From: a virus
Virus record (IMG/VR): IMGVR_UViG_3300047673_000554
Span: 1-64,000 of that record
DNA: 64,000 nucleotides
Reading direction: 5' to 3' (one strand)
The notes beneath the pieces were generated by a model. It saw nothing but the letters and a program-made list of their open reading frames with translations. It ran no database searches and was not told the DNA's origin. The number at the start of each line of letters is the position of its first letter. The first letter of the stretch is position 1. Shown piece after piece: positions 219 through 48,110 of this stretch. The translations under genes and the position numbers were made by a program.

Positions 219-243
219 GGCAGTTATCGGCCAAGAGCGGTCA
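219..243. repeat. Imperfect ~25-bp dyad site (cassette-flanking repeat A)
   Basis: GGCAGTTATCGGCCAAGAGCGGTCA; related sites at 1595/1772, 3870, 47247, 48087. Confidence 0.6.
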
Positions 244-404
244 ATCCACACAGGAACACGCCAAGCAGTCACAGGAAAAACTCCTGTAATGGCTCGCGTT
301 ACCCTTAGAGCTTTCGCAGTGGACGTCCACCATCAGTGGATGACTTAATGCTTAAGCCTAGCTATGTTTCGGGGTATCTTTAATCCGACTGCTAAGGAAT
401 TCGT

Positions 405-1373
405 ATGGCCTCATCAAAACCTGCATTCTTCTTTTCCGCGACTCAGAGCGTCGATGATCGACTCGGCGCTGCGTTCACGTTCATCTGGGCTAATTACGCA
501 GGTTTAAGAGAGTTTTGGTGGCAAGTCAGAGGTTTTAAAGAGCAATTTCCAGAGTTACACATAAAAGAAGTTGAGAAAAAGTTTTTATCGGGCCTGCCAA
601 TGCCGGGCGGGATCGACTTTAAAAAAGCTTTTTTGAACTCTGACTGGGCAGCTCATGAGCAAGAGTTTTCTAAGTGGCTCATTTTTGAATGTTGCACACT
701 ATATGAAGGCTGGGCCGAAAAAGTCTGCCATGACTTATTCTCTAAAAGCAAAAGGGACTCACATGCGAAGAGCCTTCAGTTCCCATTTGTGGATGCTGCC
801 AATCCTGGGTATAAATCAGTAATAACTGATGCCAATAGTCAGATCTCCACGTTCATGAAGCAAGAGCTACTGCCTACCCTTAAGACATCAAAGCTAAACT
901 GCTGGGATCAGATGGATGCGCACCTAACTGCATACAGTTACTTTAAAAAATGCCGTAATTCGATAATTCACTCTGATGGTCTATGCACCCAGTCGATACT
1001 GGACTTGCAGGTAAAAATTGCTCTTGAACAGAGCAAACAACCGTCACCATTCAAAAATAATTTTTCGCTTCCTGTGCAAGTGCTCAATCAAAAAATCACT
1101 TTTGATTTACGGGACTGCATACTATTTGGAACAATCGCTCGAAAACTAATTTGCACCCTTGATGCTGCGTTGAGTGTGGCATCAAAAAGCGAAGTGGTAA
1201 TGGAGAATAGACTTCGCAGTTTATCGAGTAAAAATGACAAGTGGAAAAATCTTCCTTCTGACCCATTAAGATATGAGCAACGCATTCATCGTATGCTCAG
1301 CGCTGCCAAAATTCCTGAACCTCAGAACCTTGTAAACTTCATTGGATGGATGAAAGGCAAAAAGCTAATTTAG
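405..1373 (+). CDS. Putative HEPN-domain protein (candidate RNase/defence effector)
   Basis: 322 aa, AT-rich, Rx4H motif RNSIIH plus upstream LYEGW helix typical of HEPN. Confidence 0.55.
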   Translation: MASSKPAFFFSATQSVDDRLGAAFTFIWANYAGLREFWWQVRGFKEQFPELHIKEVEKKFLSGLPMPGGIDFKKAFLNSDWAAHEQEFSKWLIFECCTLYEGWAEKVCHDLFSKSKRDSHAKSLQFPFVDAANPGYKSVITDANSQISTFMKQELLPTLKTSKLNCWDQMDAHLTAYSYFKKCRNSIIHSDGLCTQSILDLQVKIALEQSKQPSPFKNNFSLPVQVLNQKITFDLRDCILFGTIARKLICTLDAALSVASKSEVVMENRLRSLSSKNDKWKNLPSDPLRYEQRIHRMLSAAKIPEPQNLVNFIGWMKGKKLI

Positions 1374-1531
1374 ACTATGGCACTCACACAATGAGACGTA
1401 CGAAGGCCTCACTCACCTATCGCAGGACGAAGCTTGCGGGGGTGTCAGCTGCTGCTCGGCCAGCACGTTTCAATATTTGGGGATCAAGGTCGATGACGCC
1501 CTGGGGATGGCGTAACAAAATTGTGGTCTAA
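1374..1531 (+). pseudogene. C-terminal relic of a small tyrosine recombinase
   Basis: YGTHTMRRTKASLTYRRTK, then frameshifted QLLLG and YLGIKVDDALGMA, matching the HxxR...H...Y end of phage-integrase-family proteins. Confidence 0.75.
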
Positions 1532-1604
1532 CCATGCATACCGACGGTCGAAGTCAGGCCGTCGCTAAGCGGCCGTCAGCCGCCGTACGCAAGCGACAGC
1601 TTTC

Positions 1605-1777
1605 GGCCAATCGTGTTGAAAAAAAGCGGTTCTTTCAAACCGCCCACACACTGACCGCTGAAAATGCTTTTTTTGCGCGCCGCTACCGTAATACTCTACT
1701 CAAAGTATAGATTTCAATCTCAATCGCCTAATTTTGTGCAGTGAAAACCATGGCCTACTTTTTCAACACAATCGGCC
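1605..1777. mobile_element. MITE-like element with 19-bp terminal inverted repeats, inside dyad site B
   Basis: GGCCAATCGTGTTGAAAAA (1605-1623) / TTTTTCAACACAATCGGCC (1759-1777), 17/19 complementary, no ORF. Confidence 0.55.
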
Positions 1778-1952
1778 ATAAGCAGTCAGTCGGAAAGCCG
1801 CCAAAGCTGTATGCTTCCTGACAGTTCGGCAGTCGACAAGGACGCGGCCTTTATGTCAGACCGGCTCAAAGCCCGGTCTCATGCTGCATAATTGATCACC
1901 AGCATTTTCAACACAGAAATCACGAACGCTCAAATTTTAAGGGACTAAAGCC

Positions 1953-3653
1953 ATGCTCAAAGCCGATAAAATACTCGATGAAATAATATTTGTGCTCTCA
2001 ACTTTTGAAAGCTATATCAAGTATAGGTCCAAGCTTAGTCTAACCGACGCCAATATCTCTGCTGAGAGTTTGGTTGCAGATTTGTTGAACGCACTGCACG
2101 GCTGGGACTTGCGCAATACCAACGCCGCAACCAGTAATTATCCGTGTATTGACTTAATCGACGAAAAAAAGAGAATCGGCGTACAAGTAACCGCCACAAC
2201 CACGCTAAAAAAAATAAAGAGTACAATTGATTGCGTAGATTGCCATGAATTTCATTCTAAAATCGATAGATTGATCATCTTCATGCTCCTCTCTCGACAA
2301 TCGGACTATTCTGTTTCGCCTCCAAAGAATATAAAATTCAGCAAGACCGATGATATTATTGATTTTCACACAGTCATCAGATATGCAAAATATTCAGTCG
2401 GTAGTCTGGAGGCGCTCAGCAATATCAGGGCAGTTCTCAGGAATCATATCTCTAGTCGTGTCCCCTACTTCAATAACGAAGTCGAGAATTTGATTATGGT
2501 CGACATGGAGCAACGCTCTACAAGTCTTCCAAAATCCAGCACACAGCTGGAAATTTTCAACTTAATAAAAGGCAATCAGAAAGAGTTGGCGAGGGTTCGA
2601 CTGGATGATTGGGCAAAACAAATATATGCCAATGCATCAGCAGAAATATACAACTTGGCAGAGCTTTACACTCTGGTAAACCCTGTGGAAGCCGAGCTTC
2701 ATTACCAGAGGGCCATTGAGTTGAACCCTGGCAATGTCAAGCATGCAAATATTCATGGTCTGAACCTCATGAAAATTGGGAAGCTGGACGAAGCCGAAAA
2801 ACTATTCAAGGCCTGCCTGACCTCTGCTGATTTATCGCCTACAGAAAAAGAGCATATTTTGGGCAATTTGGGGATACTGTGCAAAAACCGAGCGCGCTGG
2901 CCCGAGGCAATTGATTATCTCACACAAGCCTTGGCGTTCCCTCGGCCTATGATTAATCTGGAAATGGTCAACCACCTAAATAATCTTGCAAGCTGTTACA
3001 ATAATATTGCTAATTACGAAGATTCAGAAATACTTCTCGATGAGGCCTATTCTTTGATTAACGTGCTTATCGAGGAAGAAGATGATCTTGATCGCAAAAG
3101 TATGTTGAAGCTCAAAAAAAGCAATATTCTGACCAATATATCAATCCGTCTCAGGCACAAAGCGAACAGGGATAACGATGAAACCCTACTTTTAAAAGCA
3201 ACCGCCGTAGTTAAGGAAGCGATTGATATTGCTGAGCTACTGAAAGAAAAAACAGAATTGACGCGTCACTACGGAAACCTGTCAAATATTTACAGCCAGA
3301 GGAAAAACTATGAAAGAGCAAGGAGCTTTCTGGAGAAATCGTTAGCTCTTGCCGTGGAAAACCAAGATCATCGCTCAGAGGTCGCGAACCTAGTCAATCT
3401 TGGTTTGCTGCAGATAAATGAACAACTGCTCCCCGACGCTGAACGCACTCTTCAGCATGGGCTCAAAAAAGAAAATAACCAGTACCCTCATTTTCGCGCC
3501 CATCTTTATGCAAACCTGGCTGTTGTGAATAAGTTAATGAAGAAGCATGTAGAATCAGCGCTTTTTTTCTCGGAAGCAGAACAACTTTATATTAAACACA
3601 ATATGCAGTCTCACCTGAAAGAGTTAAACAATAGATTTCTGGAATTGAGATGA
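1953..3653 (+). CDS. SMEK-domain (nuclease-like) + TPR-repeat protein
   Basis: N-term NISAE...NYPCIDLIDEKKRIGVQVTAT fits SMEK; repeated LGNLG/LNNLA/YGNLS/LVNLG TPR helices. Confidence 0.75.
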   Translation: MLKADKILDEIIFVLSTFESYIKYRSKLSLTDANISAESLVADLLNALHGWDLRNTNAATSNYPCIDLIDEKKRIGVQVTATTTLKKIKSTIDCVDCHEFHSKIDRLIIFMLLSRQSDYSVSPPKNIKFSKTDDIIDFHTVIRYAKYSVGSLEALSNIRAVLRNHISSRVPYFNNEVENLIMVDMEQRSTSLPKSSTQLEIFNLIKGNQKELARVRLDDWAKQIYANASAEIYNLAELYTLVNPVEAELHYQRAIELNPGNVKHANIHGLNLMKIGKLDEAEKLFKACLTSADLSPTEKEHILGNLGILCKNRARWPEAIDYLTQALAFPRPMINLEMVNHLNNLASCYNNIANYEDSEILLDEAYSLINVLIEEEDDLDRKSMLKLKKSNILTNISIRLRHKANRDNDETLLLKATAVVKEAIDIAELLKEKTELTRHYGNLSNIYSQRKNYERARSFLEKSLALAVENQDHRSEVANLVNLGLLQINEQLLPDAERTLQHGLKKENNQYPHFRAHLYANLAVVNKLMKKHVESALFFSEAEQLYIKHNMQSHLKELNNRFLELR

Positions 3654-3869
3654 CCATCGAGCACTGCAAGCAAAATTTCTTTCTGATCCTAAATAACCGA
3701 ATCAAAGCTAACCATCTGCTCCTGTGGCTCAAGTTATACAGGACGGAGCCTGTCGGCGATCAGTGCTGGTGACGCCGCAGTACCGGCGTCCAGGCTGAGC
3801 GATGCGTTCAAACATATCCGTTTGGAGCTGACCTGGCTGCTTTGGGCTCATATTCTGCGAGGATTCAAA

Positions 3870-3893
3870 AGCAGCTTTGGGTCGACTGCTGCC
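3870..3893. repeat. Dyad site D
   Basis: AGCAGCTTTGGGTCGACTGCTGCC; reverse complement aligns with site A. Confidence 0.5.
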
Positions 3894-3925
3894 GGTGACG
3901 ACCTAGAGTCGTGAGCTTTTTTCAG

Positions 3926-3939
3926 TGATGGATTGGGCG
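3926..3939 (+). repeat. att core, left end of prophage 1
   Basis: TGATGGATTGGGCG identical to 43965-43978; downstream TGTCGCAATTTCTAAGCAA resembles TGTAGCAAATTTTAAGCAA near 44096. Confidence 0.75.
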
Positions 3940-4084
3940 TAGCTCTGCGTCTCCCCCCTAGCCAGACGGGATAACCCACCACAACCTCTTCGCTTTGTCG
4001 CAATTTCTAAGCAAGCCGTAATAACTGCCTGACAGGGGCACTGCCGGTAATATGCTTGTATTTTTCTTGAAAGGAGTCGACACC

Positions 4085-4305
4085 ATGCCTGGTGATTATT
4101 CGCTATCGGATGTGCTGGAGAGGATCTACCACAACCAGTTGGCCATGGAGGCGCCGTGATGGAGCTGACGCTGCAGGCTGAACAGCAGGGTTCATCTGAG
4201 ACGGGCGGAAATGTCAGGGGAGCGCTGCAAACGATTGGTGAAAACGCAGGCCACATCAAGCAGGGCCTGGTCCGCATCAGGAGATTGGACATCGGCTACC
4301 GCTGA
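4085..4305 (+). pseudogene. Frameshifted copy 2 of the small hypothetical protein
   Basis: MPGDYSLSDVLERIYHNQLAME, then a 1-bp deletion (GAGGCGCCGTGA); homology resumes in another frame; same GAAAGGAGTCG RBS as copy 3. Confidence 0.75.
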
Positions 4306-4540
4306 GCTGGATGAGGCATGCAGGTAACACGCCGAAGCGAATAATGTAGGAGTGTTCCTAGGTTCTACAAGAAAGGAGCGGGTTACTTTCAAAATCCATG
4401 TCTTTGCCAATGGATTGGTTCCTACAGAGCCAAGCTGAAAACCCAGAAACGATTAAATTTCTGGGCCCCTCCAAAAACGGCTGGTTTTCGCTTACGATGG
4501 CATAAATACAGCTAGAATTATTTTAGATAGAGGGGCAAAA

Positions 4541-5680
4541 ATGTTCGAGGTTTTCTCAGTAGACTATGACTCCAGACTAAGTGCTTTTTGTGTAAACTGC
4601 CGGTGCACTTACCAAACATTTTTGCAAATCACTGAAGGTGCGGAATTAAATCTTGCCATACAACGAAACATCATTGGCGGAACGAAAACCTACAGAACAC
4701 TTCGTGCGGATTTAAAGCGTGGATGCATTCTCCCTCCAATCGTACTAGCACTAGACAAACAAGTCCTAACACAAAGGATAATAAACAGAGGCTCTGTCAC
4801 ACCTTCCGAAATATCTTTACTTGGTGAAAAGCTTTCAGCATCGATAGATCAGTGCGAAGTTTACATTATTGATGGATTACAGCGCACTAACGCAATGAGA
4901 ACTGCGGCTAAAGAACTTGAAAATGAATCCGAAGAAGATCTAGGCCAGTATCTTGAGCGTAAAATTCGCCTTGAAATATGGGTAGGTATTTCATTCGGGG
5001 CGATTGCATACCGAATGCTACTTTTAAACGCTGGTCAAAAACCAATGTCTATCAAGCACCAGGTAGAGATTCTTAGCTTCAAACTGAGAGACGATCTAGC
5101 ATCCATTGAAGGCATTGATATTTTCACGTCCAAAGAAAAACGACGTCGTAGGCAGCCAGGACAATTCCATCTATCTGTACTTGCTCAGTCATTTCAGGCA
5201 TGGATTCAAAGACAGCCTAACATTGACATGACCAATACTGTAATGGAGGAACTTTTGGCAGAGTCCGCCATTGAGACTCTCGGCGCAGCACTTTCAACTC
5301 GCGAATCCGACGACGCATTTAAAGATCTGATTCGCTGGATAGTGGATACTGACCAAAAACTAGGCGTAGATTACTTAGAGTTTTTTGGAAATGATACAGT
5401 CATGCTCGGCCTAAGTGCCGCTGTTGGAGAGTTCGGGGCTGACGAAGATTTAAGACATGACATGATGACAGCATTAGAAACATTAACCAAACGATTAAAC
5501 TCTGAGGGCCCCTCTGCAATAGGCATCGAACTATTTAACAAACTTAGACGCGGAATTGACTCTAAGAAGTTCAACGTAGGTGCTGCCACAAGAGATATGG
5601 TATCCAAAGCATTTGAACAATTTTTTTACTCTGGAGGAAGAAAAACCATGGATCGGTGCTGGCAACTGGCGAGTAAGTAA
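4541..5680 (+). CDS. DUF262/ParB-Srx-like protein
   Basis: IQR, LPPIVL, IIDGLQRT and LNAGQKPM motifs. Confidence 0.65.
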   Translation: MFEVFSVDYDSRLSAFCVNCRCTYQTFLQITEGAELNLAIQRNIIGGTKTYRTLRADLKRGCILPPIVLALDKQVLTQRIINRGSVTPSEISLLGEKLSASIDQCEVYIIDGLQRTNAMRTAAKELENESEEDLGQYLERKIRLEIWVGISFGAIAYRMLLLNAGQKPMSIKHQVEILSFKLRDDLASIEGIDIFTSKEKRRRRQPGQFHLSVLAQSFQAWIQRQPNIDMTNTVMEELLAESAIETLGAALSTRESDDAFKDLIRWIVDTDQKLGVDYLEFFGNDTVMLGLSAAVGEFGADEDLRHDMMTALETLTKRLNSEGPSAIGIELFNKLRRGIDSKKFNVGAATRDMVSKAFEQFFYSGGRKTMDRCWQLASK

Positions 5681-5681
5681 A

Positions 5682-6755
5682 ATGGCTTACTCCGAAAAAT
5701 TCTTAGACTTTCTTGAATTACCCGCCGATACCGACTTGGAGGCCTTCAGCAACCGTCTCGAAGAAATAATCCCTGAAACACCGCTTAGCGGATTGATAAG
5801 CAACCAAACAAAACAAACTCTCATAGACAACTTTGACACTACTCTAAATTTCACGACAAAAACTACTATCCCCAACACTACCTTTTCAAATAGCTCTGCA
5901 TATCACGAAATACACTCATCGATAAATGACACATTGATATGCCGCGTCTTGGAGCTTCATAAAATTAGTAGCTTTTCTGCGCTCGCATCTGACGGCGAAC
6001 GGTTGCTTTTATTATTTATCGCGCAAGAAGGTTTCACTGACTTTCCTTTTCTAGCGCCCTCAGGCCCAGGAAACACACTTCCTTTCCAAAACTCAAACTT
6101 CAATGTAATTTTTGAGTGGGCCGACCAAAGCGCGAAAGAAACGGATTTAATCTCGTCAATATATGCCCCTTCATTCACACCATTAGTTGCGCACACCGAC
6201 TACAACACTCATGCAACCGTATCTTTAAACCCAAATGGGTTTTATACAAAATTAGAAGATTTTTCGATATTAAACGAAGCCGTATCAGAATCGAGAATCA
6301 AATGGAGGTTTCTTCTTCTATATCGCATCCTGGAACATGGATACATAAGAAACTTATTAGAGCTAATACAACAGAATATTTTCTTTAAGCCCAAAGACAC
6401 TCTAACAAAAGCGACAGAGACCTTAACAAACGAATATTCACAACTTACAAATCTAATCGAACAAAACGGATTGATTCCTATCTTTGACAAAATACAAAGA
6501 ACGACTCACCACACAACAAATCTTTATCTTGGCGCTATCAAAGAAAAACTTGAACAAGATTCGAGAGCAAAAAATGGCAAACCGTTTCAAAAGGGTGCTT
6601 ACATAATATATCAAATCAGATGCAGCATCGTGCACGCCGGTGAAATGTCAATATTTTATGACAAGTACCCTGATGCTGAGTCAGGGCTGCACGAACTTTA
6701 CGATCTATTCGACAACGCCGTATTTAAATACTTAGGCATCGAATACAAAAAATAA
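5682..6755 (+). CDS. C-terminal HEPN (ApeA/MauJ-like) protein
   Basis: FLLLYRILE and YQIRCSIVHAG (Rx4H); ATG lies 1 nt after the upstream stop. Confidence 0.6.
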   Translation: MAYSEKFLDFLELPADTDLEAFSNRLEEIIPETPLSGLISNQTKQTLIDNFDTTLNFTTKTTIPNTTFSNSSAYHEIHSSINDTLICRVLELHKISSFSALASDGERLLLLFIAQEGFTDFPFLAPSGPGNTLPFQNSNFNVIFEWADQSAKETDLISSIYAPSFTPLVAHTDYNTHATVSLNPNGFYTKLEDFSILNEAVSESRIKWRFLLLYRILEHGYIRNLLELIQQNIFFKPKDTLTKATETLTNEYSQLTNLIEQNGLIPIFDKIQRTTHHTTNLYLGAIKEKLEQDSRAKNGKPFQKGAYIIYQIRCSIVHAGEMSIFYDKYPDAESGLHELYDLFDNAVFKYLGIEYKK

Positions 6756-6762
6756 AAACAAT

Positions 6763-6796
6763 ATGGGCAAGACGACCTATGTCTTGCCCATTTTTC
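6763..6796. terminator. Intrinsic terminator between convergent genes
   Basis: ATGGGCAAGAC-loop-GTCTTGCCCAT followed by a T run. Confidence 0.7.
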
Positions 6797-6800
6797 TCTA

Positions 6801-7601
6801 TTATTGGCTAAAAAGTCCTCCGAAAGCATTCGGCTCCCAATTCATGATCACCAGTTCACCACTCACCTCGGCCTTACCCTGCCGCTGGTTGGTGTTGCAG
6901 TAACGAATGTCCAGCGTCTCGAAATGGAAGCCCTCGAACACTCGGCGAATGTCCGGATGGTCGTTGATACTGACCATCACCTTGCCCTTGCAGCGGCGCA
7001 TGAAGTCGGCCATCCGCTCGTAGTTCTCGAACGGAAAGTCCACGCCGTAACCGGCGGTTTGCCAGTAAGGCGGATCCATATAGTGGAAGGTATGGGGACG
7101 GTCGTAGCGCTCGGCGCACTCAAGCCAGGGCAGGTGTTCGACATAGGTGCCGGACAGGCGCTGCCACGCAGCCGAGAGGTTTTCCTCGATCCGTAACAGG
7201 TTGATCGCCGGGCCGGTGGTGGCGGTACCGAACGTTTGCCCGGTGACCTTGCCGGCGAAGGCATGGTGCTGAAGATAGAAAAATCGCGCGGCGCGCTGAA
7301 TGTCGGTGAGGGTTTCGGGGCGGGTCATCTTCTGCCACTTGAACACCTGGCGCGAACTGAGCGCCCATTTGAACTGGCGAACGAATTCTTCCAGGTGGTT
7401 CTGCACGACGCGGTACAGCGTCACCAGGTCGCCGTTGATGTCATTGAGGACTTCAACCGGCGCGGCCTGAGGTCGCATGAAGTAAAGCGCGGCACCGCCG
7501 GCAAAGACTTCGACGTAGCATTCGTGAGGCGGAAAAAGCGGGATGAGGCGATCGGCCAGGCGGCGTTTGCCGCCCATCCAAGGGATGATGGGTGTAGACA
7601 T
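6801..7601 (-). CDS. DNA adenine methyltransferase (D12/Dam-like)
   Basis: WMGGKRRL, EVFAGGAA, NDING and DPPY motifs. Confidence 0.9.
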   Translation of the reverse strand: MSTPIIPWMGGKRRLADRLIPLFPPHECYVEVFAGGAALYFMRPQAAPVEVLNDINGDLVTLYRVVQNHLEEFVRQFKWALSSRQVFKWQKMTRPETLTDIQRAARFFYLQHHAFAGKVTGQTFGTATTGPAINLLRIEENLSAAWQRLSGTYVEHLPWLECAERYDRPHTFHYMDPPYWQTAGYGVDFPFENYERMADFMRRCKGKVMVSINDHPDIRRVFEGFHFETLDIRYCNTNQRQGKAEVSGELVIMNWEPNAFGGLFSQ

Positions 7602-7618
7602 AGAGAGCAAGACCTTTA

Positions 7619-7634
7619 CTGTATGGATAAACAG
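7619..7634. promoter_or_regulatory. LexA SOS box upstream of the methyltransferase
   Basis: CTGTATGGATAAACAG = CTGT-N8-ACAG, 17 bp upstream of the ATG. Confidence 0.7.
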
Positions 7635-7750
7635 GTGCTAGGCTCGCCGCGCTTCGTGCACGGAGTAAGAGCCTTGGCTGGACTTGCAGGGACCATCTGC
7701 AGGGACGGCGGTCGGGTGGGATGTTGACGCATCCCACCCGGCCGCTCTTT

Positions 7751-8838: not shown

Positions 8839-8896
8839 ACAAACTCCAGGCATAAAAAAACCGCACACGGCGGATTAGGGATGCGCAACAGCGCGG

Positions 8897-26779: not shown

Positions 26780-28795
26780 TCAGCGTCTCTTCAGGTAACC
26801 GCTGGTGGAACTGCGGCGTTGAGGTGGTGTTGCTGCGGGGCGCGTTTGCACGACTGCAACAGCGGGTGGTGACGCCGGTTGCCGAGTCGATGTTTCTGGA
26901 TCAGAACTATCGACCCGTTCGCCTTGAACGGGCTTGATGCCCAGGGCTTCGTCAAACAGTCCGGACTGCGCCAGGGACTGACGCACGCGCTCCCAGTCGT
27001 GTTCCTTGTAGCGATTCAGGCCCAGGTAATGCGCCATGGCCAGGCAATACACCATCAGGTCGAGCGCTTCGTTGCGCTCGGCTTTGCCCTTCACCCATTC
27101 GATGCGCTTGTGACCGCGCACGTAGCGCGCAACTTTTCGCTCTGCGACGCACTGATCGAAGAAGTCATCCGGCAGGTCATTGGCAAAGTGCAACGCGCCC
27201 GGTCCGGATTCGAACGGGTAGCGGTTGTAGATCCAGTCCTTTGCCGTGTCCGTACCGACGAACCACAGCTCGGCACCATTGCGTTCGGTCTGGCCTCTCC
27301 AGGTCACGTCGACCATCGATGGGCGTTGAGCAATGACCGGCTTGCCGGGTTTGCTCGCGCCTTTGATGGCGAACACGTTGCGCCAGCGACGAACACGGCA
27401 GAACTGATAAACCTCATCGGTGTGGTGACCGCCGGAGTCGACGGCCACCGCGAGAATGCCCAAACCAACACCGCACGGATGGCGGTATTTGGCCTTGAGC
27501 AATTCATCCAGCGCCGCCCAGGTGCGCTCGTCGGCGGGAGCGCCCGAGACTACTTGGAAATCAACGATCCAGCGCTCCATGCCGGCACCCCAGCCCATGG
27601 CCATGAATTCCAGCCGGTTGGCTTGAACATCGACGGCCCCAGTGATCATCAACACTGCCGCCGGCATTGAGCCGAGGGTGTAACCTTCCAACCGCGCCCG
27701 CTGCCTGAGCACGTCCGCTTTGGTCTGCTCTTGCGCCGCGTCCCAAACCTTCGCCAGACGGGTGTTATAGAACACCTGCATGGGCTCAAGGTCGCCTTTG
27801 GCCTGGGCCTTTTTGGCCTTCTCGAATTGCTTAGCCAGTGACTTCCAGTCCATCCACCCTAGCGGCGAATACAGCGCGTTGAGGTGGAAGCCCACCGTCT
27901 CGCCGTCACCTTCGGCGTGAGCGCGCCATTCGCCGTTGGCGAGCATTTCGCCCTTGTGGTACTCCTCGATCAGCACATCACAGTCAGGTCCAGCGCACTG
28001 GTAATGCACCACGCTGAAGTCCGGCGAGTAGTGCAGCCGCTCCCACTCAAGGATTTGCATGTGCCCACACGTCGGGCATGGCACGTAGTAGTGACGCTGG
28101 TCGCTGCCATCGAACAGGTCGGAGATTCGCGAGGCGCCCTTGATCGTCGGCGAGCTGGAGAAGTAGAACTTGGCGTTGCGGCCAAAGGTACTGCCCCTGG
28201 TTTCTGCCAGCTCGATAGGGTCACCCTCCTCGCCGATGTCCACCTCCCAGCGGTCGATCTCGTCGCCGTACACGTAGCGCGCTGACAGCTCCGACAAGTT
28301 GGCGGCCGAGCCGGCGGTGGTCACGTACAACGTACCGCCCTCGAACTCTTTGGTGTCCATGGTGTTGCGCGAATCTCGCGAGCGGTTGGCCGCCACACGT
28401 TCGCGCAACACCGGCGTCGCCTTGATCGTTTTGCCGATCCGCGAGGACACCCGTTTTGCCAATCCCAGACTGGGCAGCAGCGCCAGGATATTCGATGGCG
28501 CCATGTGCATCAGGCCGCCGATCCAGTTCAGACCAATCTGAGTTTTCATCAACTGCGACGCGACCATGGTGATCACGCGCTTGCAGGGGTGAGCCGGCGA
28601 CAGGCAACGCATGGGCTCGCGGGCATACGGCGTACGCGAGGTGCGGTACTGGCCCGGCTCAGCGGCGCCGGTATCACGCGGGATACGCATGTACTCGTCA
28701 GCCCACTGATCGATCCAGACATCCGGGTCAGGCCGTAGCCCACGGAAGTACGCCTCGCGGTACACCTCTGCACCGTCAGGAAATCCGGTGGGCAT
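26780..28795 (-). CDS. Terminase large subunit (gpA family)
   Basis: ASQLMKT, DEID, SSPT, AVDSGG, NEALD. Confidence 0.93.
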   Translation of the reverse strand: MPTGFPDGAEVYREAYFRGLRPDPDVWIDQWADEYMRIPRDTGAAEPGQYRTSRTPYAREPMRCLSPAHPCKRVITMVASQLMKTQIGLNWIGGLMHMAPSNILALLPSLGLAKRVSSRIGKTIKATPVLRERVAANRSRDSRNTMDTKEFEGGTLYVTTAGSAANLSELSARYVYGDEIDRWEVDIGEEGDPIELAETRGSTFGRNAKFYFSSSPTIKGASRISDLFDGSDQRHYYVPCPTCGHMQILEWERLHYSPDFSVVHYQCAGPDCDVLIEEYHKGEMLANGEWRAHAEGDGETVGFHLNALYSPLGWMDWKSLAKQFEKAKKAQAKGDLEPMQVFYNTRLAKVWDAAQEQTKADVLRQRARLEGYTLGSMPAAVLMITGAVDVQANRLEFMAMGWGAGMERWIVDFQVVSGAPADERTWAALDELLKAKYRHPCGVGLGILAVAVDSGGHHTDEVYQFCRVRRWRNVFAIKGASKPGKPVIAQRPSMVDVTWRGQTERNGAELWFVGTDTAKDWIYNRYPFESGPGALHFANDLPDDFFDQCVAERKVARYVRGHKRIEWVKGKAERNEALDLMVYCLAMAHYLGLNRYKEHDWERVRQSLAQSGLFDEALGIKPVQGERVDSSDPETSTRQPASPPAVAVVQTRPAATPPQRRSSTSGYLKRR

Positions 28796-34072: not shown

Positions 34073-34076
34073 CTTG

Positions 34077-39365: not shown

Positions 39366-39422
39366 GACACCCGACCCAAAGGCTGCCACCACCGGCCTAC
39401 GACATCACCAGGAGCACACCAC

Positions 39423-39842: not shown

Positions 39843-40060
39843 ATCGCTCGCTTCCAATGTTACGCCTGACACCACAGGCGGCCGGCGCCTTGCAACAGCA
39901 ATGCACCAAAGCCACCACCGAGTTGCGGGAACTGACGCGCTTTCGCAAAGAGTTCGACCGGCAACTGGTCGCACTGATCGGCAACGACGCCCTGCGCAAA
40001 CTGAACAAAGATACCAAGAACGCTCTGCTACTGGCGGACTTGGTCAAGGAGGCAGCATGA
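39839..40060 (+). CDS. Hypothetical phage protein
   Basis: ATGA coupling on both sides. Confidence 0.65.
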   Translation: MNRSLPMLRLTPQAAGALQQQCTKATTELRELTRFRKEFDRQLVALIGNDALRKLNKDTKNALLLADLVKEAA

Positions 40061-40812: not shown

Positions 40813-41078
40813 ACACCTTGTTTTTATTGATGGCTCAATACAACGGTCAAGCCGTAATTCCCCTCGATCGTGTATGCGCTGACTATATGCACCTGACGGT
40901 CGAGAAGTTCAAACGCAAACGGTTGGACGGAGAGATTGATGTTCCGATAGTGCGCTTGGGGGCTGACAGCCAAAAGGCAGCACTTGGTATCCACCTAAAA
41001 GATCTGGCCGATTATATAGACCGCCAGCGGGAAAAAGCAGCCAAGGAGCAGAACCAACTGATGGGGAGAGCTGCTTAA
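40809..41078 (+). CDS. PrtN-family protein, possible excisionase
   Basis: MNTLFLLMAQY...SQKAALGIHLKDLADYID; last early gene, facing int. Confidence 0.7.
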   Translation: MNTLFLLMAQYNGQAVIPLDRVCADYMHLTVEKFKRKRLDGEIDVPIVRLGADSQKAALGIHLKDLADYIDRQREKAAKEQNQLMGRAA

Positions 41079-41145
41079 CTCCAAACATGGGCGAGCCTAA
41101 ACATTGACCTCGCCCTTTTTTCCATCATTAATAACCTGCATAACT

Positions 41146-41640
41146 CTACTCACCATACATAGAAATTTCCGCTCGCAAATTGTTTGCGGTAACGAATCCC
41201 ACCAACTGAACAAGCACCACAACAAGAACACTCAACAAACAAGCACCCCGAATAGACAAGGCACCCCACACCCAATATTGCGAAAACCCCAATTTCTGTG
41301 CAAAAGCCATTTCCCCAACAGCACCAACAACAAATGCAACCACAATCAAGACAACAACCAAAACAACATTAACAATAACTTCTCGCTTCAAATCAGTCAA
41401 AGCGCTAACAACCAACACGTACGCCTGCGGCTTTTGCAACCTTAACTTCCTTGGGACATCCTTCAAGATTCCTTCAACGTAGTTAAAAAACGCGAACGAT
41501 AGAGCCCCGAACAATGCACCCAAGGCGAATAAAACAGTATTAACATTACTAAACATTGGGCTAGCCTCCCCTGCCGACCCCCATAATGACAGGAAGGAAA
41601 GACCGAACGATGTTAAAAACACAAATACCAGGCGAAGCAT
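41146..41640 (-). CDS. ~4-TM membrane protein (cargo)
   Basis: Hydrophobic segments; starts 1 nt after the partner stop. Confidence 0.75.
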   Translation of the reverse strand: MLRLVFVFLTSFGLSFLSLWGSAGEASPMFSNVNTVLFALGALFGALSFAFFNYVEGILKDVPRKLRLQKPQAYVLVVSALTDLKREVIVNVVLVVVLIVVAFVVGAVGEMAFAQKLGFSQYWVWGALSIRGACLLSVLVVVLVQLVGFVTANNLRAEISMYGE

Positions 41641-41641
41641 A

Positions 41642-42586
41642 CTAACGCCTCAATGAATTACCTATAGCAGAATAAACTTCAGCCACCATGCGGGCATCGT
41701 TATCAGAACGACCCGGAGCAGGCTGTCCAGTTTCAAGTTCCAGCTGCCCCTCGTGCATCACTACCTCATCCGATGGAACATCCAGATCAAGAGTAACTAT
41801 AGCAGAGATGCTTTTATGTGTTTTTTTGCCACCATGATCACCTTCAGTAGTAACACTCCACTTACCTTCTCCCTCCTCAATATAATCCACGTAATCTTCA
41901 ATGGGCGCCTTCGGGATTCTGAGGTCGCCATATTCGTTACTCAGTGTAATCTTAACCTCATCTTGATCAAAAAGCTCTTTCATGGCCTTAAGTGCATCAC
42001 GTGCTTTGACATTCGTTTCTAAAATATTTGGAGAGATGAGCTCCAACTCAACTTTATACACTTTCTTATGAGTTTTAATAACATTCCAAAACTCACCTTT
42101 AATGGTTTTCGGCTCAATGAAAATCGAGTAATTATACTCATTCAAGACAGCGTCTTTTAATCCCGCATGAATAGCATTTGCAATTTGTTCTTCAGTACCA
42201 AAGCGCCAATCATGCTGTACAAAAACATACTGCTCCACGATATCCACTATTGTAATTACTGGAACCCAATCATCAGCATCATGAGGGACAATATCACCTG
42301 GTATCTTATCGCCAACTTTTGTTATTTTGTGTTTAGCCGTCTTCCCGACCAGAAATCTTCCCTTCGGGAATTCATCAGCTATAGGGTCAACGTACGAAAA
42401 GCCTACAAAACTATAACGAACCTTATTTTTAACAAACTCACTGCCATCGTCCTGAAGGGCAGAAACGACCACCGCTCCTTTGGGGCTCGGTAAGGGCTTT
42501 GGAACAAGGGCGCCCTGCTTGTTTTCGATCAACGAGTATCGCAGCACTAAAAACGGTTTGATTCCTTTCACAACAAAATCCTTCAA
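41642..42586 (-). CDS. Soluble cargo protein (DUF4747/RexA/KwaB-like?)
   Basis: 314 aa, AT-rich, TTG start, VELELISPN motif. Confidence 0.55.
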   Translation of the reverse strand: MKDFVVKGIKPFLVLRYSLIENKQGALVPKPLPSPKGAVVVSALQDDGSEFVKNKVRYSFVGFSYVDPIADEFPKGRFLVGKTAKHKITKVGDKIPGDIVPHDADDWVPVITIVDIVEQYVFVQHDWRFGTEEQIANAIHAGLKDAVLNEYNYSIFIEPKTIKGEFWNVIKTHKKVYKVELELISPNILETNVKARDALKAMKELFDQDEVKITLSNEYGDLRIPKAPIEDYVDYIEEGEGKWSVTTEGDHGGKKTHKSISAIVTLDLDVPSDEVVMHEGQLELETGQPAPGRSDNDARMVAEVYSAIGNSLRR

Positions 42587-42691
42587 CGTAAATTAGGAGT
42601 TCAGCAGTGCTCGGCAACGTACCCTTTTTAGAGAGCGATCTCAATGTGCAATCACGCGACTCTTAAGTATGCGACCGCTTCGCTACGCCGG

Positions 42692-43780
42692 CTAAACCAG
42701 CTTGCTTAACCACTCCCACTTTTTATAAGCGTCCCCTCTCCCTCGAAGGTGGGTATACCGCCTCAACGAGTTCCAGTCCCTGTGCCCTGAAACACTCGAC
42801 ACTCTCGGGATATCCCAGTCCATCTCAAACAACCGACTCACCCCTTCGTGTCGCAGATCATGGAAATGCAGGTCTTCGATGCCTAGCATCGGGCAGGCCC
42901 GGGTGAAGGACGCCGACACCGACCTGGCGTTGTAGGGAAAGATCTCCACTTCCGTTTTGGGCATGGACTGCAGGATCGCCCAGGCTTCATCCGGCAGATG
43001 ACACCACACGTTGTTGCCGATCTTCTGCCCGGGGTTTTTCATGTCCCGCACCAGGACGGCCTGACGGATCTCATCCAGGTCCTCCCAGCGAATCCGCGTA
43101 ATCTCTTCCTGCCGGCGAGTTGAGAAGAGCGCGAAAGCAATCAGCTTTGGCATATCGATTTGGCTTTTTCGACGCTCCTGCATTTCGAAAAAATGCTTCA
43201 TCAGCTTGTCCAGCTCATCAAGGGTTGGCCGACGGTTACGCTCCTTGCTCTTGCTCACCATGCCCAACTTGCGCAACACCCTGCGTGCGTCGGACATGGC
43301 CAGCGGGTTCACCTCATAACCCCAGGCTGGCCTCGCCACGGACAGCACCGCCCCTAGGTGCGACAAATCGTTGCCGACTGTCTGCGCCTGGACGCCACCA
43401 CCCTCCTTGCTCATTCGCCACTGCGCGAACTCCACCAGCTTCTGACTACTCAGCGCCGCGTCGTCGAGCTCGCCCAACCAGGTGTCCTTGATCGCGTTCA
43501 GCGTGGCGCTCTTGGTCTTGCCCAGCGGTCGGATCTTCTCGTACTCATCCAGGTACTGCTGGATCATCTTCTTGATCGTCACCCCTTTGCGGTTCGCGCG
43601 CTCGATGGCACCCGGTTCCGCCAGCTCTGTTTCCCGGCGCTTGATCCAAGCCTGGGCTACCTGCTTGCGGTCGAAGGTTTGGCTTTCCTGATAAACTGTC
43701 TTCCCGTCCCGATTGATCCGTATCTGCGCCGTGTAGGCCGTCGAGTTGTCCTTGCGCTTACGTGATGTGATCGTGCCCAT
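42692..43780 (-). CDS. int: Tyrosine integrase (dusA-associated type)
   Basis: STRRQEEI, HDLRHEG, SGHRDW...RYTH; next to the dusA 5-prime fragment. Confidence 0.93.
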   Translation of the reverse strand: MGTITSRKRKDNSTAYTAQIRINRDGKTVYQESQTFDRKQVAQAWIKRRETELAEPGAIERANRKGVTIKKMIQQYLDEYEKIRPLGKTKSATLNAIKDTWLGELDDAALSSQKLVEFAQWRMSKEGGGVQAQTVGNDLSHLGAVLSVARPAWGYEVNPLAMSDARRVLRKLGMVSKSKERNRRPTLDELDKLMKHFFEMQERRKSQIDMPKLIAFALFSTRRQEEITRIRWEDLDEIRQAVLVRDMKNPGQKIGNNVWCHLPDEAWAILQSMPKTEVEIFPYNARSVSASFTRACPMLGIEDLHFHDLRHEGVSRLFEMDWDIPRVSSVSGHRDWNSLRRYTHLRGRGDAYKKWEWLSKLV

Positions 43781-43882
43781 TTCCAGTTGCTACATTGCTG
43801 AAGTCGATTGCTACATTGTAGCAACCGACTTCGAAAAACAAGGAAAAATGGGTAAAAACCGCTGTATAAAAGACCAGTATCA

Positions 43883-43984
43883 ATGAATCTCGAAAAACCT
43901 GAAGCGCCCGTAAATACTAGCCACACCCGTTCCGAGCCATCCCGCCGCTTCAGCGTGGCCCCGATGATGGATTGGGCGCACTAA
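43883..43984 (+). pseudogene. dusA: Phage-supplied dusA 5-prime end containing the att core, not fused to a dusA body
   Basis: MNLEKPEAPVNTSHTRSEPSRRFSVAPMMDWAH*; RRFSVAPMMDW is the DusA N-terminal motif; TGCTACATT arm-like repeats upstream. Confidence 0.8.
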
Positions 43985-44413
43985 CGGTCCCCCCCCCCGC
44001 AAATAAAGGCCGTTAGGTCTGTTCTAAATCCCCGGTACCAATTTCGTACCAGCAACATTCGTCCTCCATCAAATCCGAGTAGCTCTCTCACCCGCTGTAG
44101 CAAATTTTAAGCAACCGTTTTCGGCTCCAATCATGGGCACTGTTGTGACTGCCCCCCCTTATCCGCTACAGTTTCCAGGTTGATTGTTGATTGTTTATTT
44201 TTGCATGTATGTACACGCACGCTCTGCGTTAATAAAAACAAAATATATCACTACACCCCCCTAACCTCGCTCATATTATCAATGCACATTACAACCCCTT
44301 TAAACTAAAAAATACGCCCCCATCGCCAAAGCAAAAAGAATTTGAAAATTAATTTAAAAAATGAGAAGGTGGCATTTTGCCCACAATGGATTGCATCCCT
44401 AAGGAAATATTAA

Positions 44414-46231
44414 ATGATTGTAACTTCAGCAATGGCTGCCGCAGCCATACGCAGCCTCACTCCGCTGATTGGTGCAGCCTACAAAGGTGCAAGCAAATCA
44501 TTGAAATCCAGTTTTTCAAACTGGTCCAATACGAATAGTAATGAAGAAATTGCGAATCATCTTTTACAGATCGGCGTTGTTAAAACAATCTGGTCATCAG
44601 GAAAAAGCAAGTTTATTAAAGACTTTTATTACCCATCAAAGATTGACGAAATCAACGATGGCGAGGGCATTGACCATGTCGATCAACTCCCTAAAGGAAA
44701 CATAGTTATTCAAGGCATAGTTGGCCAGGGCAAATCTATGTTCATGCGCCACCTAGCTTGTTCTGCCATTGGAGAAATTGGGAACTCTTATATACCGGTA
44801 TTCATTGAACTTCAAAAGATAAGTTCAAAAAAAGGCTTGAAACAGATCATATTTGAAAACTTGGAACTATTGGGAATCACAGTAACTGAAGAGAGTGTTA
44901 AATATCTAGCATCAAAAGGCTACTTAGTCTTTCTGTTAGATGGATTTGATGAAGTCGTAGATGCATGCATCAATGAAACTGTTGAAGCGCTTGATGAATT
45001 TCAGAGACGCTATCCAAAACTTAAAATCATTGTCTCATCACGCCCCGGTAGTGGCATCCAGCAGATGGTAGGCTTCGAAGTTCTAGATCTGACGCCTTTA
45101 ACGGAAGATGATTACGAACCTTTCTTAAAGTGCCTCCAGCTAGATACCGTAAAAAGAGAGGCGTTGATAGCCGCAACTGAATCTGCTCCAGATTCAGTTA
45201 AAGAAATTATAAGCACACCATTAATGCTCACGTTAGTTGTTTGGGTTTACGAATCCGAACAAGAAATTCCATCTACGCTAAGAGATTTCTTTGAAAAACT
45301 ATTCCATGTCGTTTTCACCAGACACGATAGTTTAAAGGTTGGCTTTACAAGACAACACTACAGCGGTCTTTCGGAAACAAAACTCCTACAACTTTTTGAG
45401 GCGTTCTGTTTTATGATCGTTCAAGAAAATTTCGGAAGAAGTTTAACACGACCAGAATTTAATACTGCATTCACCAATGCACTTGAGTATTCAGAAGCAA
45501 CAAATTGCGATGTGGACCATTTCAGAAAAGACATTGTAAAAGTCGCATGCCTGATGCTGGAAGATGGCCTTGACCTAACTACTTTTCTGCACAAAAGCAT
45601 TTTGGATTATTATGCCGCCGCATTTATATTACACAGCGAAGAAGAGTTATCCGAACTATTTTATTCGGACGCTTTTGAAGGATTTAGCCAATGGCAGCAT
45701 GTGTTATTCTTCTTAGCTGACGCTGACAAATACCGATATTCAAAACATTATTTACTCACCCATTTCCAACCGGGCATTGATGAAATCGATCAGTTACTTA
45801 AATCAAAGAGTGACGATATTTTATTACGACACATAAATAAGAAGCATACTGGCTTCACTTACTTAATTAGTGAAAAAGGGCAAATGCTTGGTTGGTCAGG
45901 CGCCAAATCGGCAGCAACGCAAATTGGTATCTATTTTGAAAGAGCATTAATTTACGGAGGCCAAAAAATATTCAATGGGAGTTTACCTGCCACCCAGCTA
46001 GCCCAAATAATAAAAGTTGCGGCTGTACAAGGGAAAAACAAACCTGCAGGTAGAAACTATTATCACATTGAAATCAGCGAGGTTATGCGCATTATTGGCA
46101 CTGATTCATACTGGCGCGAAATTGCTCTCATCGATCTTGAATTACACAAAAAAATGGACGAGGCACAACGCACAGTTGAACATCAAAACAAAAAGAAAAA
46201 AATCTTTGGTAAAAAACTGAAGCCCCGCTAA
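44414..46231 (+). CDS. NACHT NTPase (bacterial NLR-related protein)
   Basis: Walker A GIVGQGKS, Walker B LLDGFDE, SSRP, TPLML, FLHKS. Confidence 0.85.
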   Translation: MIVTSAMAAAAIRSLTPLIGAAYKGASKSLKSSFSNWSNTNSNEEIANHLLQIGVVKTIWSSGKSKFIKDFYYPSKIDEINDGEGIDHVDQLPKGNIVIQGIVGQGKSMFMRHLACSAIGEIGNSYIPVFIELQKISSKKGLKQIIFENLELLGITVTEESVKYLASKGYLVFLLDGFDEVVDACINETVEALDEFQRRYPKLKIIVSSRPGSGIQQMVGFEVLDLTPLTEDDYEPFLKCLQLDTVKREALIAATESAPDSVKEIISTPLMLTLVVWVYESEQEIPSTLRDFFEKLFHVVFTRHDSLKVGFTRQHYSGLSETKLLQLFEAFCFMIVQENFGRSLTRPEFNTAFTNALEYSEATNCDVDHFRKDIVKVACLMLEDGLDLTTFLHKSILDYYAAAFILHSEEELSELFYSDAFEGFSQWQHVLFFLADADKYRYSKHYLLTHFQPGIDEIDQLLKSKSDDILLRHINKKHTGFTYLISEKGQMLGWSGAKSAATQIGIYFERALIYGGQKIFNGSLPATQLAQIIKVAAVQGKNKPAGRNYYHIEISEVMRIIGTDSYWREIALIDLELHKKMDEAQRTVEHQNKKKKIFGKKLKPR

Positions 46232-46370
46232 AACGTCATGGCGTGATACTGGTGCAAAACATTTCCTTGCCCGACATCACTATCGGCAAGTGTTTCCCTT
46301 TTGCGTCGGAGGTGTCGCCGTAGGATTCGTTAATGACGGTTTTGGAGACTTTAATAACCCTCCCCGCTTC

Positions 46371-46426
46371 CTCGTTATCAGCTTCCCAAGCTGATAACGA
46401 GGGTTCGATTCCCTTCACCCGCTCCA
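46371..46426 (+). repeat. att site: 3-prime half of tRNA-Gly(CCC), not an intact tRNA
   Basis: TCAGCTTCCCAAGCTGA-TAAC-GAGGGTTCGATTCCCTT-CACCCGCT-CCA; no D arm; perfect 14-bp inverted repeat around CCC. Confidence 0.85.
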
Positions 46427-46577
46427 CTATTTTCAAGGCCTGCAGCCCTGTTCATCCATTACCGTAACCCACTGGGGGACGTATTGGGGGACGTTTGATG
46501 CAAGCACACGCAACGCGCTGTAACTCCTGATCCAACCCCCGTATAGGTGCCAATCCTAAAATCCGTGGGGGTTCGAA

Positions 46578-46862
46578 AAAATAGTAATATCAGTAATACC
46601 CCCTCCGTAAAACAGCCACAGCCCTTATCGATCAAGGCGTCCAGCGATTCATGGGGAAGGCGATATTTAAGCGATAGAAAGGCGATAGTATTACCTTTCT
46701 ATAAAGCTATATTTCCATTCTTTGAAACCCAATGAATCCGGGGGTTTGGCCGAAATATTACTTTTCATATCGCCTCGTATTACCTTGCTTTGTAATACCG
46801 AAAGCCTAGTAAAACCGGGGGCTCCAAACCCGCTACCTATAAGGTATCGCTGATATCGCTCT
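46578..46862. repeat. Iteron-like AT-rich region (GTAATA/TATTAC, GCGATA/TATCGC)
   Basis: More than 10 short motifs in converging orientations, no credible ORF. Confidence 0.45.
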
Positions 46863-46970
46863 TTTTGAAAATGCCCCCGCCCCCTAAGAATCACTCTCAA
46901 TAAAGCGATGTTTTCGGTTCTCGGTCTGTCGCTGCTATGCTTGAATTTCTTTCGAAAGGAGTCGGCAACC

Positions 46971-47201
46971 ATGGCAAGCGAGTATTCACTGGCGGATGTG
47001 CTGGAACGGATTTACCACAATCAGTTGGCCTTGGAAGCGGCAGTGATGGAGCTGACTCGGTGGGCAGAGCAGCAGAATGCAGTAGATGTGGGCGATAACG
47101 TGCGGGGAGCGCTCTACACTATTGGCGAAAACGCAGGTCATATCAAACAAGGCTTGGCTCGACTGAGCGGGTTCCCGCCAGATCTTCGTGAGGCCAATTA
47201 G
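46971..47201 (+). CDS. Small conserved hypothetical protein (copy 3)
   Basis: MASEYSLADVLERIYHNQLALEAA; AAGGAG RBS. Confidence 0.75.
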   Translation: MASEYSLADVLERIYHNQLALEAAVMELTRWAEQQNAVDVGDNVRGALYTIGENAGHIKQGLARLSGFPPDLREAN

Positions 47202-47246
47202 ACGATGGCTTAGCGTCTTATGAACAGTTCTCCCCGCTAGGCAATC

Positions 47247-47271
47247 GACAGTAATTGGCCAAAAGCAGTCA
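47247..47271. repeat. Dyad site C
   Basis: GACAGTAATTGGCCAAAAGCAGTCA. Confidence 0.6.
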
Positions 47272-47304
47272 TTCAATCCTCTACAAAAGCAGGGGCGATT
47301 CACC

Positions 47305-47955
47305 ATGCAGGATCACGTACTCAAGCGCATCGATGAACTGATTTCGCGGGGCAATGCCGCCGCCCGGTCACAATCATCCCAAGACTATTGGATGAAAGAC
47401 GTCGTGGAGGCACAGAGTTGGTTCTCGTCCGCGGCTAACGCGATACACCAGGTCGCCCCGCCTGGCAGTTTCTACATGGCAGAGCTGCAGAGGATCGTCG
47501 AGCATGAGCAACTCCAAAGCGGCTTCCCGATTTCCTCCGTCGAAAAACTCCTTGGTCTGCTTCAGTCGGTGCAGCTTGAAGCGCGAGCTGGGTTGCTGGT
47601 CAAACTCGAGGACCAAGTAGTCGCCTCAGCGTTCGATGACTTTCTTGATCACGCGACGCAGTATCACAAGGCCGGCAAGGTCAACGAAGCTGCTGTCCTG
47701 GCTTCTGCGGTGCTTGAAGACACTATCAAGCGCATAGCACGGAAGTCTGAGATTGCGGTTGGTGGTGTGTCTCTCGAACCTCTCATTGATGAACTGACCA
47801 AGCGCAGCGTCTTTACGCAGGTGAAGGCGAAGCGTTTGAAATCATACGCAGCGGTTCGCAACCACGCTCTTCACGCGGAGTGGGAGAAATTGGACATTAG
47901 AGACGTTGGTGCACAACTCTCTGGGCTTCGTGAACTTCTAGATGAGCATCTTTGA
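47305..47955 (+). CDS. DUF4145/HEPN-domain protein (gene cassette)
   Basis: AAVLASAVLED...AVRNHALHAEW (Rx4H). Confidence 0.75.
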   Translation: MQDHVLKRIDELISRGNAAARSQSSQDYWMKDVVEAQSWFSSAANAIHQVAPPGSFYMAELQRIVEHEQLQSGFPISSVEKLLGLLQSVQLEARAGLLVKLEDQVVASAFDDFLDHATQYHKAGKVNEAAVLASAVLEDTIKRIARKSEIAVGGVSLEPLIDELTKRSVFTQVKAKRLKSYAAVRNHALHAEWEKLDIRDVGAQLSGLRELLDEHL

Positions 47956-47962
47956 CGCTGAC

Positions 47963-48020
47963 GCCTAACCCGTCGTTCCAGCCGACCGCCTTCGGCGGCG
48001 GTTGAACTCCAACGTTATGC
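47963..48020 (+). other. Integron attC site (58 bp)
   Basis: GCCTAAC-N5-GTTCCAGC-hairpin-GTTGAAC-N6-GTTATGC; R and L boxes with an extrahelical base. Confidence 0.8.
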
Positions 48021-48086
48021 AAAAGGAGTTCGCCGCCCCCTGAAATTTCTGACTGAATCGGACTTAGTTTTTAGACAAGCCGGTAT

Positions 48087-48110
48087 GTCAGTAATGGATC
48101 GATTGCAGTC
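48087..48110. repeat. Dyad site E
   Basis: GTCAGTAATGGATCGATTGCAGTC. Confidence 0.45.

Follow-up and report, generated by a model that had tools for sequence, protein, structure and literature searches.

The first 64 kb of a 79.6-kb provirus record in IMG/VR (IMGVR_UViG_3300047673_000554; we call this 64,000-nucleotide stretch the window) carries several copies of a 24-bp palindrome centred on GGCC, lying around accessory genes and beside the decayed end of a gene for a small tyrosine recombinase. We favour, with moderate confidence, the reading that these dyads serve the small recombinase as sites of recombination and landing, and that the window preserves a fossil array of them. This reading draws on a site family with a characteristic distribution, a recombinase unit with defined ends, a close spatial link between the two, and breaks in homology that fall at GGCC. 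An earlier note on this DNA had proposed that the dyads form an integron-like system for shuffling single-gene defence cassettes. Judged from the sequences compared here, cassette shuffling of this kind by the recombinase is plausible but unproven.

Each site comprises two 10-bp arms around a four-base centre (10 + GGCC + 10, a 10-4-10 palindrome). The consensus of 46 sites from Pseudomonas genomes is GGCAGCAATC GGCC AAAAGCGGNC, then RTTC, and conservation in this set extends beyond the 24 bp to GA at positions -4/-3 and to the RTTC 3′ of the site. A second class has a GACC/GGTC centre and is common in the paired sites of other genomes. Neighbouring sites mostly have their starts exactly 34 bp apart (74 of ~100 close pairs), and such pairs are mostly arranged head to head around a conserved 10-bp spacer (TCGYGACR). 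For scoring the window we used a position matrix built from 44 sites, all from other genomes, and took the background from 100 second-order Markov simulations of the 79.6-kb contig, in which the maximum averaged 11.7 bits, the top value was 19.9 bits and no match exceeded 20 bits. The dyads that the earlier note had listed at A, B and E are real by this measure, with scores of 34-39 bits; for site B, which is split by an insertion, the value of 34.3 bits refers to the site rebuilt by removing bases 1609-1777. The rest of the list fared less well. Site C is a weaker member of the family whose score is level with the top simulated value, and site F is putatively degenerate, its score giving no support and its inclusion coming from genome comparison only. 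A further site at the true end of the recombinase relic had been missed, and the proposed motif spacing (N3-6-N3) does not describe the family, as a literal search with it recovers only halves of B and chance matches. The phage structural and replication genes had been described as free of dyads, and the matrix scan agrees: nothing in them rises above chance, the best score being 10.5 bits at 27475. The coordinates of the main features are collected in Table 1.

Table 1. Sites, recombinase relic, cargo genes and prophage features in the window (aa, amino acids)
Feature	Position	Strand	Description
Site A	219-242	+	GGCAGTTATC GGCC AAGAGCGGTC; 38.9 bits
Junction site, right end of recombinase unit	1561-1584	+	GTCGCTAAGC GGCC GTCAGCCGCC; 10 bp before site B
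Site B, left arm and GGCC	1595-1608	+	GACAGCTTTC GGCC
Site B, second GGCC and right arm	1774-1787	+	GGCC ATAAGCAGTC
Site C	3870-3893	-	GGCAGCAGTC GACC CAAAGCTGCT; GACC-centre class; 19.6 bits
Site E	47247-47270	+	GACAGTAATT GGCC AAAAGCAGTC; 35.5 bits
Site F (putative)	48087-48110	+	Degenerate, centre mutated to GATC; 7.1 bits
Recombinase relic	1376-1518	+	Residues 151-203 of a 206-aa tyrosine recombinase; frameshifted; residues 1-150 absent
Non-autonomous element (MITE)	1609-1773	not assigned	165 bp; terminal inverted repeats AATCGTGTTGAAAAA / TTTTTCAACACAATC
Cargo gene, 322 aa	405-1373	+	RNSIIH (Rx4H, HEPN-like) motif; no Pfam or NCBIfam match
Cargo gene, 566 aa	1953-3653	+	SMEK_N (Pfam PF21941, E = 1.5e-37) and TPR repeats
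Cargo gene, 216 aa	47305-47955	+	No family match; conserved leader from site E to start codon
attC-like element, integron type	47963-48020	+	GCCTAAC ... GTTATGC; read from sequence; not of the 24-bp family
Small phage gene, copy 1	1-216	+	71 aa; PHROG phrog_12397, function unknown; stop codon 2 bp before site A
Small phage gene, copy 2	4085-4305 (end approximate)	+	1-bp deletion; at left end of complete prophage
Small phage gene, copy 3	46971-47201	+	
Complete siphovirus-type prophage	~3926-44120		Tape measure, tail fibre, portal, large terminase and primase-helicase genes
Prophage integrase, 362 aa	42692-43780		
NACHT gene	right of complete prophage		No integrase of its own
Second prophage, cargo end	right end of the stack, right of complete prophage		

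Directly before site B lies the 3′ end of a small tyrosine recombinase gene, as the earlier note had recognised. A tblastn search aligned positions 1376-1432 with residues 151-169 of an intact 206-aa homologue (P0002) at 95% identity, and positions 1462-1518 with residues 185-203 of the same protein in a different reading frame. The recombinase matches the Pfam model PF00589 (Phage_integrase; E = 8.9e-20, 71.6 bits, cut-off 27.1), and alignment to the catalytic domains of XerA (4a8e) and XerD matched the Arg, His-x-x-Arg, His and Tyr positions, which fall in the motifs LRACDL, HTMRRT, LLGHT and VRYL. By sequence, the relic and its intact relatives are assigned to the tyrosine recombinase superfamily. 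One intact relative, WP_003118388.1 from a P. aeruginosa plasmid, consists of the catalytic domain only. The family is large, with at least 8000 clusters at 90% identity that carry generic names only, and the gene or fragments of it were found in 28 of 101 genomes at 85-95% identity.

The intact genes are mobile-looking units in their own right. In all 12 intact copies inspected, the gene sits in a unit of ~0.75 kb, GGCC-GGTTAGCGAC ... GTCGCTAACC-GGCC, with perfect inner inverted repeats and with family half-sites directly outside. The right end of this unit is present in the window at 1561-1574, and of 33 listed alignments between the relic and other genomes, 26 stop at 1574, the final base of GGCC. 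Sites and recombinase also keep company on a larger scale: for at least 13 of the 28 genomes, the recombinase or its relic has a strong site no more than 16 kb away, where ~0.9 would be expected (binomial P = 6e-13), and genomes with the gene or a relic carry 5.9 sites each against 3.8 in those without (P = 0.002). The co-occurrence with intact family members that the earlier note had proposed as a check is seen both at the ends of the gene and in its neighbourhood.

Homology breaks at GGCC for the relic and at sites E and F, matching the expectation that gene content would change at the dyad centre. The homologue of the post-E cargo in genome G147 (720 bp, 92% identity) begins with the first G of GGCC, at 47257, and its left arm is unrelated to that of site E. 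For the sequence after site F, homology with genomes G294 and G146 starts at 48094-48096, and in G294 a canonical partner site lies 10 bp upstream. Upstream of the small phage gene phrog_12397, copies of which precede sites A and E, similarity among several species begins at TGGCC, with outer arm and flank differing. Across 90 loci, 11 alignments cross the site centres, compared with 134-429 at offsets of 150-300 bp.

Sites were detected in 93 of 101 sampled Pseudomonas genomes (E <= 0.001), at 1-19 per genome and concentrated in a few clusters. Two genomes that are unpublished, G154 and G102, enter only the tallies 165/301, 93/101 and 57/101, and alignments to G154 are excluded from counts. 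A pattern search of five complete genomes gave 2-12 matches each, in tight clusters, against 0-2 for the pattern read backwards, and a sequence-only covariance model agrees with this low-copy, clustered distribution. We considered abundance of the kind seen in repetitive extragenic palindromic (REP) elements, which the earlier note had named as the outcome that would count against it; the whole-genome counts rule it out. In IMG/VR viral contigs, most of the ~84 matches show the family signature at positions left free by the search, and we regard the matches as true members because most carry these extra features of the family. Blocks between sites measure 0.7-4.4 kb and are therefore not strictly single genes, contrary to the idea of single-gene cassettes. 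Nor is the cargo in other genomes specific to defence, as had been supposed: blocks in P. gorinensis hold GNAT, glyoxalase, HEPN-like, histidine-kinase and GGDEF genes. In complete genomes the arrays have genes on both strands, and in five of them no conventional integrase was found as a consistent neighbour. Of the cargo in the window, the 322-aa gene has a 78%-identical counterpart in genome G256, followed by degenerate sites, and no relatives of the SMEK-TPR gene or the 216-aa gene were found in viral contigs.

These observations suggest how the system might work. Dimers of the small recombinase would bind the two ~10-bp arms of a double-stranded core site and exchange strands within the palindromic GGCC. 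A circular unit of ~0.75 kb, carrying one palindromic site, would integrate at a target site and create hybrid sites on both sides, and because integration leaves such hybrids behind, sites would accumulate in accessory DNA, among other places in the cargo corner that lies beside the phrog_12397 gene in Pseudomonas prophages. Pairs of sites would then permit deletion, inversion, and replacement or exchange of the one-to-few-gene blocks between them, and a palindromic centre without polarity would fit the presence of blocks in both orientations. Separately, the ISCfr1-like IS1182 family of insertion sequences and its derivatives insert at these GGCC centres as well, which offer them a safe target. 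The array in the window is a fossil: the relic is truncated and frameshifted, site B is split by an insertion-sequence derivative and site F has decayed. The system is inactive here unless the host supplies a recombinase.

The insertion in site B bears on a different explanation of the sites. The earlier note had called it a miniature inverted-repeat transposable element (MITE), and its ends also bound full-length elements of 1.6-2.0 kb that encode a DUF772 plus DDE transposase; in three of these (L304, L305 and L306) open reading frames match PF05598 and PF13751 (DUF772 and DDE_Tnp_1_6). RefSeq names the element ISCfr1, of the IS1182 family, and it occurs on ~900 plasmids, including clinical Enterobacterales plasmids. 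By these sequence matches, the insertion in site B is identified as a MITE of the ISCfr1-like IS1182 DDE family. All 20 MITE copies fetched from other genomes sit between two GGCC inside a family site, with outer arms that differ from copy to copy; among the matches listed, nine alignments of the MITE to published genomes stop at 1777, the final base of GGCC. Full-length IS1182-family elements likewise lie between duplicated GGCC inside sites (for example L307:876-2495 and L308:2501-4120), and the MITE terminal repeat is present in 57 of 101 Pseudomonas genomes, at up to ~12 copies per genome. The MITE and ISCfr1 insertions show that the sites are a recognised target on mobile DNA. No target preference of the ISCfr1-type family for these sites was found in the literature searched. 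ISCfr1 is frequent on clinical resistance plasmids, and a target defined by sequence would help to explain its landing places. The MITE was at first taken as further support for the recombinase. We dropped it as such evidence, the same terminal repeats bounding DDE-transposase elements, and since this family targets the GGCC centre by its own mechanism the insertion says nothing about the tyrosine recombinase. In P. gorinensis, two direct ISCfr1-type left ends with the same following bases (L110:16594 and 18800) flank a CHASE-GGDEF gene, 2.2 kb apart.

The sites might instead be REP-like hairpin or cruciform elements with another primary role, serving as mere safe landing pads for the ISCfr1-like DDE family, its MITEs and the recombinase unit, with cargo not moved by the recombinase and the breaks at GGCC arising from insertion-sequence activity or short-repeat recombination. 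This explanation gains its main strength from the insertion in site B being a DDE element that uses GGCC by its own mechanism, and the placement and abundance of such insertions in sites elsewhere favour it too. The inner arm of many sites (AATC-GGCC) resembles the end of the insertion sequence (GAATC-GGCC), the X-GGCC-X' arms would form a 10-bp stem capped by a GGCC loop, and sites persist in genomes that have no recombinase. We nevertheless consider it unlikely. Copy number is far below that of REP families, the recombinase unit has perfect inverted ends of its own that meet at GGCC and a strong spatial link to sites, and no remnant of an insertion sequence or MITE adjoins the cargo breakpoints at E and F. 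Site position suggests no other role, with sites on both sides of genes and in both orientations.

Several points weigh against the reading of the dyads as sites of the small recombinase. There is no intact recombinase on the contig, the only other integrase there being the 362-aa enzyme of the prophage, and sites are also present in 65 of the 73 genomes that lack the recombinase. Conservation of the arms is loose, whereas copies of the enzyme from different genomes are 85-95% identical. The MITE gives the clearest evidence of insertion, and a DDE transposase accounts for it, not the recombinase. In the comparison of alignment ends over the 90 loci the excess is modest, with 14 unique ends at site centres against 0-12 at offset controls; the count of alignments that cross the centres gave the clearer result. 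On plasmid pPA942-IMP45, the recombinase unit abuts a gene block at a position that is a non-site in 627 other plasmids, and no pair of empty and occupied states of one locus was found, including in the plasmid comparison. The steps of the proposed mechanism, moreover, are all inferred from sequence.

At L119:3700-4489 on the P. aeruginosa plasmid pPA942-IMP45, a ptx phosphite-oxidation block with a LysR regulator ends inside the left GGCC of the recombinase unit, which truncates the LysR gene; the ptx block is common to the 627 plasmids, of Klebsiella, Pseudomonas and others, at 98.6% identity. For plasmid pPUV-1, a single near-identical relative has the same flanks, and it also carries the recombinase unit.

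The window is a stack of mobile elements, and the sites could accordingly be read as attL/attR core scars from tandem integration of prophages or islands by conventional large integrases. The stacked elements include a prophage with its 362-aa integrase, a NACHT gene, a fragment of a transfer RNA (tRNA) and a second prophage, and the small gene beside the sites is located at prophage ends. We hold this to be improbable, given that the sites lie inside cargo regions and not at prophage boundaries; homology of the complete prophage with other prophages begins at 3926 and not at site C. The same sites, moreover, form arrays among chromosomal accessory genes with no phage or large integrase nearby.

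Least probable of all is that the dyads are operators or terminators of neighbouring genes, for example binding sites of the 71-aa protein, or ordinary integron attC sites: sites A and E do lie directly 3′ of the small gene, in one site subfamily a conserved leader extends as far as the start codon of the cargo, and a genuine attC-like element follows the 216-aa gene, yet only about 12 of 80 loci with the small phage gene have an adjoining site, most genomic sites are far from such a gene, no T-runs follow the sites, the R''/R' boxes (RYYYAAC / GTTRRRY) are missing from them, and the recombinase scores far below the integron-integrase cut-off (given below). We also tried attC-like folding of paired sites and rejected it, as arm complementarity is 5.36 of 10 variable positions, barely above the 4.82 +/- 0.19 of shuffled pairs. 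The attC-like element starts 7 bp after the stop codon of the 216-aa gene and has no counterpart in the G147 homologue, where similarity stops at 47976; no integron integrase was found on the contig. The claimed independence from IntI and attC therefore holds for the sites, which are unlike attC, and for the recombinase, which is not IntI. It does not hold for the block between E and F, because the attC-like element follows its gene.

In its workings the proposed system resembles integrons and pdif modules. As in integrons, small blocks of accessory genes are set apart by short palindromic sites with which a tyrosine recombinase is associated, arrays often outlive the recombinase (as in clusters of attC sites lacking integron-integrases, CALINs), and the sites attract an insertion sequence specialised for them, as attC does with the IS1111-attC group. 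Other features differ. Against integron-integrase models the recombinase reaches 24.3 bits for TIGR02249 (cut-off 265) and 18.1 bits for NF011946 (cut-off 435). The 206-aa protein lacks a core-binding domain and the extra domain of IntI, the latter being excluded because 206 aa leave no room for it. R/L boxes are missing from the sites, which are duplex-type dyads of 24 bp; we saw neither an attI site nor a cassette promoter or fixed platform, and arrays in complete genomes have no adjacent recombinase. Blocks occur in both orientations and may hold several genes, and the gene for the recombinase forms a mobile block of its own with sites at its ends. By enzyme, attC and platform the system fails as an integron, and by copy number it fails as a REP family.

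Other systems share single traits. The pdif modules of Acinetobacter plasmids are likewise bracketed by arm-spacer-arm sites, often in alternating orientation, and recur in different contexts. Their sites are similar to chromosomal dif (11-6-11), and recombination at them is attributed to the XerC/XerD enzymes of the host. The sites described here, by contrast, are 10-4-10 around GGCC, show no likeness by eye to Pseudomonas or Acinetobacter dif, and travel with a dedicated small recombinase. In REP/REPIN systems with REP-associated tyrosine transposases (RAYTs), an enzyme gene is flanked by inverted short palindromes that are also dispersed in the genome, often as fixed-spacing doublets, the spacing here being 34 bp. 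RAYTs, however, are single-strand Y1 HUH transposases and the enzyme here is a classical tyrosine recombinase; REPs number hundreds per genome as against 1-19 sites, and the sites lie in variable islands and prophage cargo and not throughout the core genome. ISCfr1 and other site-hunting insertion sequences (IS1397 in REPs, IS1111-attC) are matched by the element in site B, with its ISCfr1-type ends, GGCC on both sides and strict palindromic target, but they account for the insertion in B only and not for the sites themselves. The invertases FimB and FimE, of ~200 aa, are similar in size, have no arm-binding domain and act on short inverted sites; they flip one fixed promoter segment and are not mobile units, and their similarity to the recombinase here is weak (20.8 bits against the tyrosine-type invertase model, cut-off 222).

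More broadly, and with somewhat less than even confidence, we suggest a widespread and undescribed module-exchange system running parallel to integrons in Pseudomonas, its relatives, phages and plasmids, in which a 206-aa enzyme, moving as a 0.75-kb block, would insert, swap and invert accessory and defence blocks at 24-bp GGCC sites in genomic islands and the cargo regions of prophages, with an IS1182-family insertion sequence as its parasite. No description of the sites or the recombinase system was found in the literature searched, which is no proof that none exists. If the recombinase does act on the sites, bacteria and phages would have a second, integron-independent route for trading accessory and defence genes, and the enzyme, which would have a defined target of 24 bp, would rank among the smallest of such site-specific recombinases and so be of interest as a tool. 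The high variability of prophage cargo corners beside the phrog_12397 gene would also be explained.

The phrog_12397 gene is present in the window as three diverged copies of 71-79 aa, each marking the start of a prophage cargo region, and the dyads claimed by the earlier note all lie in accessory stretches beside copies 1 and 3. No scorable site follows copy 2 (matrix score -7.7 bits). A homologue of copy 1 in Pseudomonas phage VW-6S lies between cI and int. The leader beyond site E (47271-47304) belongs to a subfamily: 16 of 410 sites are followed by a conserved leader of ~35 nucleotides, ATTCAAT..CTCTACAAAAGCAGGGGCGATTCACC, that reaches the start codon of the next gene, with further examples at loci L162, L136, L238, L086, L088 and L063. 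At L063, ~39 bp of the leader sequence form inverted repeats at both ends of a 2.2-kb block.

A search of positions 1-5000 for known RNA families gave no match. The tRNA 3′ end at 46402-46426 (GGTTCGATTCCCTTCACCCGCTCCA) stands alone, no complete tRNA having been found on the contig, and is likely the attachment-site duplicate of an earlier integration. Between the SMEK-TPR gene and site C, a stretch of ~127 bp (3695-3821) is 80-81% identical to many Pseudomonas genomes, often at contig ends, and equally to a gene annotated as a transposase in phage MD8; by these matches it is probably the end of another insertion sequence.

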